Below, one piece after another: positions 42,982 through 46,149 of a stretch of DNA of 64,000 bases. The notes below the pieces were generated by a model. That model ran no database searches and had not been told where the DNA came from. It saw only the letters and a list, made by a program, of their open reading frames with translations. Position 1 is the first letter of the stretch. Every line of letters begins with the position of its first letter. The DNA is from Phage NC-G: the sequence record MK310184; one strand, given 5' to 3'. The translations under genes and the position numbers were made by a program.

Positions 42982-43083
42982 CTTTTTAAAGTGTGCCGCT
43001 ATTAAACCAATAGCTAAGCCTGTTGCCAGGCCTAGGATAACAGCAAAGATACAGAGTAACAAGAACTCGACTCCAAGGCTCAT
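42982..43083 (-). CDS. Small membrane peptide (33 aa), absent from the ORF track
   Basis: Hand translation gives MSLGVEFLLLCIFAVILGLATGLAIGLIAAHFKK; ATGA overlap with the gene 52 stop. Confidence 0.35.
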
Positions 43084-44459
43084 AGAGCCTCCAAATCTTT
43101 AACATACTCAGTTACAACATCAGTGGTTTTCCAGTATTGATGCTCTTCTTTCTTGGCCTTGGCTTCCAAAGCCAGTTTCTTAGCTTCATCGGACGTGATA
43201 TGGAAAATGTTCATTGCTACGAGTTTATCGGCATATTCACCATAGACTTTATTGCTGGCCAATTCTTCGGTTAAAACCTTACGGGTCTTACCTTGGATAA
43301 CCACTACACCATCAATAACATCTTTAATGAATGTAGCTTTGGCCAATGCCAGTTTGAAAGCTTCTTCGGTTTCGATGATTTTACCATCAATACGTTTTTG
43401 TACAAAGGTCTTACGGACCTCAACGAAATCACGAATCAGTTCAACTACATCTTCGTAAACCTTAAGTTTACCTTTTTCATTAATGACGGTCAGGTTTTGC
43501 GAACGACGTTCGATTAACCCAAAGTCCTTCATGATTTTTTCGTGCTTCTTATTTTCTTCAGTAGGCAATTCGTATTCTTTACGAATCTTAACCTTGAAGC
43601 CGAAACCATTCTCGTCACAGTCGTCATCATACGTGATATACCCTTTGTCTTCTAAAGGGTCCAGAACCTTAGCTACATACGTTTCACGGTCATATTTGTA
43701 CGGGATTTCTGTGATATGCATTTGGGTTCGAGATGTGAATTTATACGTTCCACGAATCTCATAACTACCCGGTTCAATCTCAACCACATCACCACGGAAT
43801 TCCGGATAAGCCACCTTAGGCTTGGTTACGCGTTTTTCTTGAAGAACCTGCAATACAGCTTTCTTAACAGAATCAAAACTATGAGGAAGAATATTAGTTG
43901 CATAACCAGTTGCAATACCGGAAATACCATTAAGAAGAACAGTAGGAATAATAGGCAGATAAAAAGCTGGTGGCTTATGTTCAACATCCGCATGAACCGG
44001 AGCATATTCTGTATCCTTATAAACCTTTGCGAAATTAGTTCCAATACGTGCAAAAATATAACGAGAGGCTGCAGCCTTTTGAACCAAACGAGAACCAAAG
44101 TTACCTTGCCCATCCAACAGTGGGAAGTTGTTGTTCCATGTGTTAGCCATCAAAGCACCTGCTTCCTGAGCAGAGCCTTCACCATGGTGATATCCAAGGT
44201 CGGCTACACCGCCTGCAATAGAAGCTAGTTTGTGGAATTTTTCTTTATTACCACGAGCCATATCAAGACAACGAGCAACTACAAAACGTTGTACAGGTTT
44301 AAAACCGTCAATCATATTTGGAATGGCGCGGTTTTCGACAGTATACATTGCGTAAGCCAGCGCTTCGTTGTCGATAATGCTTTTTAAGTCACGACGAGTA
44401 AAAGCGTCATCGTAAACATCTAAGGATTGTTTAAAAAGGGTATCAATTACATCAGCCAT
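43080..44459 (-). CDS. 52: DNA topoisomerase II medium subunit (GyrA-like)
   Basis: 459 aa; FKPVQRFVVARCLDMA and catalytic Tyr region. Confidence 0.9.
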   Translation of the reverse strand: MADVIDTLFKQSLDVYDDAFTRRDLKSIIDNEALAYAMYTVENRAIPNMIDGFKPVQRFVVARCLDMARGNKEKFHKLASIAGGVADLGYHHGEGSAQEAGALMANTWNNNFPLLDGQGNFGSRLVQKAAASRYIFARIGTNFAKVYKDTEYAPVHADVEHKPPAFYLPIIPTVLLNGISGIATGYATNILPHSFDSVKKAVLQVLQEKRVTKPKVAYPEFRGDVVEIEPGSYEIRGTYKFTSRTQMHITEIPYKYDRETYVAKVLDPLEDKGYITYDDDCDENGFGFKVKIRKEYELPTEENKKHEKIMKDFGLIERRSQNLTVINEKGKLKVYEDVVELIRDFVEVRKTFVQKRIDGKIIETEEAFKLALAKATFIKDVIDGVVVIQGKTRKVLTEELASNKVYGEYADKLVAMNIFHITSDEAKKLALEAKAKKEEHQYWKTTDVVTEYVKDLEAL

Positions 44460-44596
44460 AATTTTACCATACTAGTGAATGAATAACCATAATAACATCG
44501 GAAATAAAAAGCACAACTTGGATAAGACCGAATATTACTCCATAATACAGTGCTACAAATAAAGCAGCAAGGGCTACAGAGTAGCCCAAGATTTTC

Positions 44597-44758
44597 TTAA
44601 TCATTTTTAATCATCTTAAGTAAGCCGACAGAAGTAGAAAGCACCCAGCCAATAAACAGAAAACTTAAGAATACCGGACCAGGGGTCCACACACCTAAAA
44701 AGAAGCAAACTGAACAGACTATAGCCATAATAAGTTCAATAAAAACTAGGATAATCAT
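44597..44758 (-). CDS. Small membrane protein (53 aa; ac-like position)
   Basis: Start at MIILVFIELIM; the longer track ORF runs through an upstream hairpin. Confidence 0.45.
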   Translation of the reverse strand: MIILVFIELIMAIVCSVCFFLGVWTPGPVFLSFLFIGWVLSTSVGLLKMIKND

Positions 44759-44768
44759 ATTTTCCTCA

Positions 44769-44876
44769 TTAGCGTCCGAAGACGCCTTTAGTTTTAAGAT
44801 TGATACGATAGAACTGCATCGCATGTTCATTATGGAAATTACTCCGTAATACAGTAGCCCAAGATTTCTTAATCAT
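44769..44876 (-). CDS. stp: Stp-like peptide, copy A (35 aa, N-terminally extended)
   Basis: Hand translation gives [35 protein letters not shown]; the core resembles T4 Stp as I recall it. Confidence 0.55.
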
Positions 44877-45022
44877 TTTTTGGTAAAGGCCTGTAGAATC
44901 AGAACAAATGCCAATATGAATTGTGGAATGGCCTGAGAAATGACCGAAGTTTCACCTGTTGTAATAGTCCAAATACCTAGATAAGTCCAAATACCCGCAG
45001 CAAAACCTTGTAAAATATTCAT
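44873..45022 (-). CDS. Small membrane protein (49 aa)
   Basis: [49 protein letters not shown]; ATGA overlap with the stp-A start. Confidence 0.4.
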
Positions 45023-45029
45023 ATTTTCC

Positions 45030-45110
45030 TCAAGGGCGTCCGAAGACGCCAGTTAATTTCAGATTATGACGGTGCCATTGCATCACATGTTCATTATAGA
45101 AATTACTCAT
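45030..45110 (-). CDS. stp: Stp-like peptide, copy B (26 aa)
   Basis: Hand translation gives [26 protein letters not shown]; same length as T4 Stp. Confidence 0.6.
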
Positions 45111-45276
45111 AGATACCACACATTTTGCATAAACGTTCAAAACAAATATAACCACCACATAAACACATCATGACGGCAACTTTATCATTAAAGGGCATAC
45201 CGAAAGCCATAAAGGCTCCGGTAACTACTAATGAAGCTAAAACAAATAGATAACCCATTACAAAGAACGTTCTCAT
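45103..45276 (-). CDS. Small membrane protein (57 aa)
   Basis: [57 protein letters not shown]; start 1 nt after the ndd-like stop. Confidence 0.4.
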
Positions 45277-45277
45277 A

Positions 45278-45727
45278 TTAATAACTCTGTAGAACGAATT
45301 TAAAGTTATCAGCCAACATGCGGTTCATTTCTTCCAGGGTCTGAAGGTCGGAACTATGGTTGCGAGTGAAAGCCATTGCAATTTGACCCTTACCAAAACC
45401 TGTAGTCAGTGGTTTCATTTTAGAAGCAGGTACATAAAGAACTTCATACACTACACCGTTCACAGCCATAGTGCGAGCTGATTGAGAACGTTTCTTACGG
45501 ATGTTAGCCACAATACCATCAAGACCTTGAGCTGAACGTTGGTTGCCGACATAAAAGCGAGCGGCTACGACACGAGAATCTGCTTCACCTTTAACAAAGA
45601 AGTAGAAGCCTGGCTGGGCAGCGATTTCTTTAGAAGGCTTACCATTTTGGTATTCGCCATTCTTAACATAAGCAACAGTAGTAGCACCAGCAGACAGAAC
45701 GTCACGGCGAGTCATATAAGTATTCAT
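45278..45727 (-). CDS. ndd: Ndd-like protein (nucleoid disruption), assigned by synteny
   Basis: 149 aa immediately upstream of stp, as in T4; sequence identity not independently recalled. Confidence 0.5.
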
Positions 45728-45804
45728 ATCAATTTCCTCAGTAGATTAATGTTTTGTTATCCAGTCAACGAGAACCATTATAACATGATTCTCGAGGTTG
45801 TAAA

Positions 45805-46149
45805 CTATTTTTGTAGCTGTTCTAAAATAAATCCGCTCGTATAAAAAGAAGCATTATAAACCTTGTTCAGCGGGTTCAAAGCACGTCCGTAAGTATCACG
45901 TAATTCTTTGATAACGTTTTCATAACTCACGTAGTAAGCACTATGATAACCTGGGTCCATACTCATACGAAATTTAATGAACCGATAAAAGCCTGTTTCC
46001 GGGTCTTGAACGAAAACGAAATCAGCACTCGTCATAATCTTTGAATGTACGCCGGGAATCATACTTTGATTGAATGCCACCGATGCATCCTGAAGGCTGA
46101 GTTGTTTAAAGAACATTACCTTAGCATTACCAAAAAATACTTTAGACAT
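45805..46149 (-). CDS. Hypothetical protein (114 aa)
   Basis: ORF. Confidence 0.5.
   Translation of the reverse strand: MSKVFFGNAKVMFFKQLSLQDASVAFNQSMIPGVHSKIMTSADFVFVQDPETGFYRFIKFRMSMDPGYHSAYYVSYENVIKELRDTYGRALNPLNKVYNASFYTSGFILEQLQK

Follow-up and report, generated by a model that had tools for sequence, protein, structure and literature searches.

The closest described counterpart of the locus reported here is the stp gene of bacteriophage T4, which lies in the order ndd-stp-ac-52.1 and encodes a peptide, Stp, that blocks restriction by type IC systems (EcoprrI, EcoR124I) and switches on latent PrrC (PMC3014915, PMC12707154). Suppressors with loss of stp function map to a cluster at residues 4-14 of T4 Stp, and the N-proximal 18 residues are near-invariant; deletion of the last 8 codons impairs activity only moderately (PMC3014915). 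According to a 2025 review, the mechanism of action of Stp is still unknown.

We analysed the corresponding interval in a 64,000-nucleotide stretch of DNA from Phage NC-G (MK310184; the window). Over the 1.4 kb surrounding the locus, its identity is 97.6% to phage JS98 and 96.4% to IME281, and, judging from the sequence, the source phage is a Dhakavirus resembling JS98. Between ndd and gene 52, six small genes (w57, stpB, w49, stpA, w53, and 52.1) are packed on the minus strand (Table 1) with overlaps or spacers of 1-10 nt between them: a single nucleotide lies between ndd and w57, w57 and stpB share an 8-nt overlap (ATGAGTAA), the TGA stop codon of w49 overlaps the stpA start codon as ATGA, and w53 and 52.1 again overlap by 8 nt. 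A preliminary description of this DNA had recognised five tightly coupled small genes between ndd and 52, and all five were recovered at the positions given there, on the minus strand. The repeat of about 85 bp that it had seen around the two stp copies measures 94 nt, with 79% identity between the copies, and the polynucleotide kinase and RNA ligase 1 genes that it had placed in the window were both located. The 46-aa ORF next to gene 52 matched the DUF7396 profile over its full length (77.3 bits, cut-off 27) and is the orthologue of T4 gp52.1.

Table 1. Features of the ndd-52 interval and related genes in the window
Feature	Description	Position	Strand	Remark
Pnk	polynucleotide kinase/3'-phosphatase, 302 aa	14382-15290	minus	tRNA repair countering PrrC
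Rnl1	RNA ligase 1, 382 aa	17441-18589	minus	tRNA repair countering PrrC
gene 52		43080-44459	minus	
gene 52.1	46 aa, DUF7396	44464-44604	minus	resident intact copy
w53	53-aa membrane protein	44597-44758	minus	phrog_9347
Direct repeat, copy 1	body of stp, hairpin, Shine-Dalgarno sequence, initial codons of the next gene	44751-44844		
stpA	35-aa chimeric ORF	44769-44876	minus	
Hairpin A	GGCGUC(UUCG)GACGC	44772-44786	minus	stpA GVFGR codons, just 5' of the w53 Shine-Dalgarno sequence
52.1' fragment	5' end of a second 52.1 copy	44838-44876	minus	gives the ATG and 11-residue leader of stpA
w49	49-aa membrane protein	44873-45022	minus	phrog_2501
Direct repeat, copy 2	79% identical to copy 1	45015-45108		
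stpB	26-aa Stp, WH allele	45030-45110	minus	own ATG
Hairpin B	GGCGUC(UUCG)GACGCC	45035-45050	minus	stpB GVFGR(P) codons, just 5' of the w49 Shine-Dalgarno sequence
w57	57-aa predicted membrane protein	45103-45276	minus	phrog_5941
ndd	nucleoid disruption protein, 149 aa	45278-45727	minus	upstream neighbour
sigma-70 early-promoter-like site	TTTACA-16-TGnTATAAT, 11/12	45777-45804	minus	consensus scan only

Approximately 50 nt upstream of ndd is a sigma-70-like site with an extended -10 TG (Table 1), which is the likely start of an ndd-to-52 polycistronic transcript; with an 11/12 site just 5' of ndd, the gene set looks like one early polycistronic unit. A scan of positions 44300-45900 against Rfam gave no relevant match, the only hit being a 19.5-bit chance match to a mammalian lncRNA model. 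At the other end of the interval, the N-terminus of gene 52 is dimorphic (the 5' end of the gene occupies 44409-44459 of the window): a 459-aa form beginning MADVIDTLFKQ... is found in the window, C6, dhaeg, MN04, WG01, and one Logan contig, and a 442-aa form beginning MELTSRGLK or MQLNxRDLK in JS98, IME341, MX01, T4, and VR26.

Comparison with T4 Stp (reference sequence from NC_000866) established that both Stp-like peptides noticed in the preliminary description belong to the Stp family. Against Pfam PF08133 (Nuclease_act; gathering score 25 bits), stpB scored 51.3 bits (E=9e-14) and stpA 61 bits (E=7e-17), and both matched phrog_6763 (E=8e-18 and 6e-17, respectively). StpB is identical to T4 Stp at 20 of 26 residues and resembles it in length (26 aa), in its location downstream of ndd, in its overlap-coupled start, and in its C-terminal GVFGR hairpin, but differs from it by F12W, Y13H, N15H, T19L, K20T, and Q26P, plus H5Y. 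The core of StpA is identical to T4 Stp at 22 of 24 residues; it differs in having no Met1, an 11-residue leader derived from 52.1, the changes V9A and N15I, and no residue 26. At profile position 1, stpB has its own initiator Met; stpA has Arg (CGG) there, its match spans profile positions 2-25 only, and its ORF starts at the 52.1-derived ATG, 11 codons upstream of profile position 1. As for genomic position, stpB lies 3' of ndd and w57, and stpA lies 5' of w53, like the single stp of JS10, C6, and MN04.

Two allele classes of Stp occur naturally, the 'FY' class of T4 and the 'WH' class of Gaprivervirus, and both are widespread as single-copy genes; the idea of two diverged variants in the preliminary description stands to this extent. 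StpB is a WH allele with H5Y relative to JS98 and VR26, and at positions 5, 12, 13, and 15, compared with T4, it has the states conserved in its allele class except for H5Y. The V9A and N15I changes of stpA were found in the window only, and residues 4-8 and 10-14 are intact. H5Y (CAT>TAT, window 45096-45098) occurs independently in the WH-type Stp of the window and the FY-type Stp of MX01, and the Stp of HelliStehle has Phe at this position, which falls within the region of residues 4-14 where T4 stp suppressors map.

Stp-like peptides were also seen beyond the T-even phages, in Drexlerviridae, Kagunavirus, and HelliStehle_Bas95. In Hafnia phage Pocis76, the Stp-like gene is directly 5' of a polynucleotide kinase/phosphatase gene, and the Stp-like ORF of phage P817 has an N-terminal extension (MKEYPS-SNHHNGH...) and no Met at the canonical position. 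In phage DCP80, where Stp is matched twice, the second match lies elsewhere in the record, away from the ndd-52 locus. Among the T-even genomes examined for stp annotation (JS98, IME281, C6, MN04, WG01, MX01, VR26, and CJ20), the gene is unannotated in most, the tblastn matches falling under no annotation or overlapping that of ndd; the RefSeq record of JS98 already carries an annotation of stpB, and the chimeric second copy described below is annotated in none of these deposited genomes.

StpA is a chimera of 52.1 and stp. In the alignments, its first 39 nt correspond to the 5' end of 52.1 (ATGATTAAGAAA(-A)TCTTGGGCTACT...GTATTACGGAGTAAT), and repeat searches likewise detected a second occurrence of the 52.1 5' end (44580-44608), shifted in register by 1 nt, at 44853-44880 and of an 18-mer from inside 52.1 at 44838-44855. 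This second 52.1 end (52.1') carries a 1-nt deletion in an A-run, also present in the chimera of JS98/IME281, and an internal deletion of 31 nt relative to the JS98 form (junction at ~44852-44855, gap flanked by ACT), which in the window brings the 52.1' ATG into frame with the stp remnant. We aligned 52.1, the long chimera of JS98, the short chimeras of the window and of the Logan assemblies, and JS10 stp to define the junction. The join of 52.1' to stp is a 7-nt microhomology, GAGTAAT (44838-44844), which is invariant across the alignments and common to 52.1 codons 22-24 (GGA GTA AT) and stp codons 1-3 (ATG AGT AAT). From codon 2 onward, the body of stpA is a T4-type FY stp; because 52.1' is joined to it at GAGTAAT, the canonical Met codon of stpA is CGG.

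The arrangement of w49 plus chimera is rare, being present in only 5 phages among 50,697 records (JS98, IME281, EcWhh-1, UP19, and Esco_phi_B-01), all of which have a 172-nt long form. The long form is 31 nt longer and out of frame; its 52.1' reads MIKKSWVTR and stops after 9 codons, and to judge from this reading frame the long-form chimera is a pseudogene whose stp remnant has no start codon. The intervals of JS98 and IME281 share with the window the gene order, a 100% identical w49 protein, and the 52.1'::stp junction, at an overall identity of 96-98%, but their chimera has no annotation, exceeds that of the window by 31 nt, and is not in frame, with F4S instead of V9A and N15I, and IME281 has no w57. 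Single-copy intervals have the order ndd-stp(FY)-w53-52.1 in JS10, MN04, WG01, and MX01 and the same order plus w57 in C6 and IME341; UPEC07 has a single-copy w57-stp(WH)-w53, and in VR26 and CJ20 a single-copy stp(WH) is followed by a 54-aa gene.

With a 43-aa in-frame translation of the stpA DNA as a protein query, the short in-frame form was found in two Logan assemblies as well (ERR3179013 and ERR3179108), on contigs that are collinear with the window at ~97% identity. There the in-frame ORF stops after 33 residues, with T19I and G24stop (GGA>TGA). An exact-pattern scan of IMG/VR for the in-frame junction found none, and with a degenerate chimera-junction pattern the IMG/VR matches were confined to JS98 and IME281 themselves, and JGI metagenomes gave none. 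The in-frame chimeric ORF was in no annotated phage record among those searched, and a literature search on stp duplication, JS98 stp, and UUCG with stp yielded no paper describing the arrangement. The duplication itself is present but unannotated in published genomes.

The substitution pattern separates the chimeric copies from the other stp genes. The T4-type peptide is strongly conserved: 439 of 798 records encode a 25-mer that is 100% identical to it, and its conservation reaches the Kagunavirus copy (RP180) despite many synonymous differences. Functional FY-type genes (n=9) show 2 non-synonymous and 13 synonymous distinct codon states, and the chimeric versions (n=3) show 5 non-synonymous or nonsense and 2 synonymous ones (F4S; V9A, N15I; T19I, G24stop). 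The contrast between them (Fisher p=0.014) rests on only 7 and 15 codon states and is of a kind that does not separate neutral drift from diversifying selection. For WH-type copies, we read ~2 non-synonymous and ~7 synonymous changes from the alignments. By these counts, the WH/stpB-type copies are evidently under purifying selection, and the chimeric copy does not show that pattern. F4S (JS98) and V9A (stpA) lie in a sensitive region of the peptide, since the suppressors cluster at residues 4-14.

Hairpins with a C(UUCG)G tetraloop were reportedly described in T4 mRNAs by Tuerk et al. in 1988. The two hairpins of the window are like them in having a 6-bp GC-rich stem, a C-G pair closing the UUCG loop, and a location at a cistron boundary, but they lie within coding sequence (the GVFGR codons) and are duplicated. 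That these codons form such a hairpin had been claimed in the preliminary description and agrees with our folding results: exactly two copies of the 15-mer GGCGTCTTCGGACGC are present in the window, where 0.03 would be expected, and in all the contexts that we folded it forms a 6-bp stem capped by a UUCG loop. T4 stp carries an equivalent hairpin (GGCGTCTTCGGACGCC), which is thus not specific to the window, and phage G28 annotates the stp hairpin as a 'putative terminator'. The only stem changes seen among the T-even copies are C>U where the partner is G and A>G where it is U, pairing being kept in both cases, and the loop variants are UUUG and UUCU. Conservation of GVFGR solely for the sake of the hairpin was rejected, as siphovirus homologues keep GVFGK or GVLGK with non-pairing codons; since the Stp of T2, moreover, has a different C-terminus, the peptide motif and the hairpin are separable. 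A sense-strand Rho-independent terminator was rejected too, the hairpins being followed by UAAUGAGGAAAA or CUUGAGGAAAA and by no U-run. On the plus (antisense) strand, T-rich tails (CTTTAGTTTT; AGTTAATTTC) follow the hairpins, which score as intrinsic terminators in that orientation, and the FY-type tail is the reverse complement of the Lys-Thr-Lys codons. The stp hairpins may serve as terminators of antisense or late-mode transcription.

A TGAGGAAAATATG block precedes each gene 3' of an stp copy (w49 and w53). The preliminary description had called the 53-aa product ac-like; the Ac-family member turned out to be w49 instead. W49 falls in the PHROG of T4 Ac (phrog_2501, E=3.9e-20, compared with E=2.2e-25 for T4 Ac itself), and its homologues in Klebsiella phages (49% identity) are annotated as acridine resistance protein. 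No BLASTP alignment was obtained between T4 Ac and either w49 or w53, the link of w49 to Ac coming from the PHROG profile only. W53 belongs to phrog_9347 and has no match to phrog_2501; it occupies the position of ac beside 52.1 but is of another family than T4 Ac. Across the T-even phages, small membrane proteins of at least three families with no relation to one another occupy the place between stp and 52.1, namely T4 Ac/w49 (phrog_2501), w53 (phrog_9347), and a 54-aa type (dhaeg, VR26, and CJ20). Each is preceded by the conserved hairpin with its TGAGGAAAATATG block, which resembles an anchor for the recombinational exchange of genes. W57, with two predicted hydrophobic stretches and a Cys-rich C-terminus, is an insertion that some phages have between ndd and stp (the window, JS98, C6, IME341, dhaeg, and UPEC07) and others lack (T4, JS10, IME281, and the Logan contigs), and its end always forms the ATGAGTAA overlap with stp.

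Automatic gene calling had reported a 77-aa ORF (44597-44830) in this interval. As the longest ORF there, it might be taken for the real gene, with the stpA frame left without any translation, but this is extremely improbable: its first 24 codons overlap stpA in another frame, in which JS98 and IME281 have a stop; all w53 homologues have a length of 53 aa, with the internal ATG as their start codon, and GAGGAAAAT lies in front of this ATG; phrog_9347 covers residues 1-53 of the 53-aa form from end to end; and no Shine-Dalgarno sequence lies 5' of the 77-aa start. On this comparative evidence, the 77-aa ORF is an over-extension of w53 into the stpA region. Exact-product look-ups for the 77-aa and 35-aa ORFs returned no record.

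From the anatomy of the interval, the chimeric junction, the states of the relatives, and the substitution pattern, we infer that a single crossover, unequal and illegitimate, with two different T-even genomes as parents, enlarged the ndd-52 interval. The first parent would have had the order ndd-(w57)-stp[WH]-w49 (the ac homologue)-52.1 and the second ndd-stp[FY/T4 type]-w53-52.1; the WH-type stp-ac-52.1' segment would thus have come to lie ahead of a resident segment with the FY-type stp, w53, and 52.1. A crossover at GAGTAAT, between codons 22-24 of 52.1 and codons 1-3 of stp, would yield stpWH, w49, 52.1' fused to stp codon 2, w53, and 52.1, in this order. Such an origin of the second copy, by illegitimate recombination alone, is highly probable. 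StpB, which kept its own ATG, is probably the working Stp of the phage; by homology to T4 Stp, it would, as an early peptide, bind type IC restriction complexes and inhibit restriction, and in prr+ hosts PrrC would thereby be unleashed and its cuts in tRNA-Lys mended by the Pnk and Rnl1 encoded in the window. The start codon of stpA would have been lost in the crossover, leaving a pseudogene in the ancestor, as still seen in JS98 and IME281, and a later 31-nt microhomology deletion within 52.1' would have put the borrowed ATG in frame to create the 35-aa ORF. This ATG would still be translationally coupled to the w49 stop via ATGA, and the fused peptide may be made. The stpA DNA may be kept at least partly as the carrier of the hairpin and ribosome-binding site of w53.

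How far stpA still acts as an Stp is the point on which the readings differ. We consider it reasonably probable that the phage has one functional Stp, StpB, and that stpA is a relic of recombination; it is most likely a non-functional one because its sequence evolves as if unconstrained. Counting against a relic are the open, in-frame ORF, whose start codon is functional for 52.1 in its native context, and the persistence of the in-frame form in at least two lineages ~3% apart. These same features, together with the ATGA overlap that keeps stpA coupled to w49 and the scores of both copies above the PF08133 threshold, would fit two functional Stps, the 31-nt deletion having been selected for re-expressing a T4-type Stp so that different type IC/PrrC variants are covered. 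StpA and StpB represent two natural allele classes that differ at positions 12, 13, and 15 in the critical N-proximal region (PMC3014915), most critical residues of stpA are intact, and the in-frame chimera recurs in the two further Logan assemblies. The extended Stp-like ORF of P817 implies that an N-terminal extension need not abolish activity, and the G24stop of the Logan copy is not decisive because a C-terminal deletion of 8 codons only moderately impairs T4 Stp (PMC3014915).

Even so, we regard two functional Stps as rather unlikely. None of the five closest complete genomes has the chimera in frame, one random deletion in three would restore the frame, V9A of stpA lies within the suppressor cluster, and the in-frame Logan copy has gained T19I besides its nonsense codon. 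The leader of 11 residues comes from a membrane-protein gene, as a piece that is frameshifted and shortened by an internal deletion, and shows no sign of design; the chimera accumulates changes at 5:2 (non-synonymous or nonsense to synonymous), compared with 2:13 in functional copies. The part of the preliminary description that envisaged two working peptides aimed at different host systems thus finds no support in the evolution of a copy that borrows its start codon, does not stand in frame in 5 relatives, and changes mainly at non-synonymous or nonsense sites. It is unlikely that the 31-nt deletion revived the start-less stp and that the window phage and its Logan relatives would co-express WH and FY Stps of different specificity. 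The excess of non-synonymous changes could also arise by positive selection, and the window and Logan copies differ at six sites in 72 nt, between flanks that are ~3% divergent; stpA might then be a neo-functionalised micro-protein under diversifying selection for an activity unrelated to that of classical Stp. We consider this very improbable, given that the changes include a nonsense codon, that JS98 has no reading frame, and that the sample, tiny as it is, contains no recurrent site or directional pattern. StpA is a small structural variant of a known peptide family and most likely a relic, with StpB as the probable working copy.

Stp is the classic double-edged phage effector, a peptide that counters restriction and also sets off the abortive cleavage of tRNA. 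The locus is a base-resolved case of micro-gene shuffling in T-even phages, its proposed steps being a heterologous unequal crossover at a 7-nt microhomology, the loss of a start codon, and the restoration of the frame by a second microhomology deletion, and unrelated small membrane proteins are exchanged for one another in the slot 3' of stp. Automatic annotation mis-calls the interval, producing the 77-aa ORF and missing the stp genes in most records. At least two conserved Stp allele classes that differ inside the critical region would be good reagents for specificity tests. If the fused peptide is active, Stp would tolerate an N-terminal extension and phages could stack Stp alleles; if the two alleles are indeed co-expressed, the locus would be a natural instance of anti-defence gene stacking, brought about by illegitimate recombination followed by ORF rescue.
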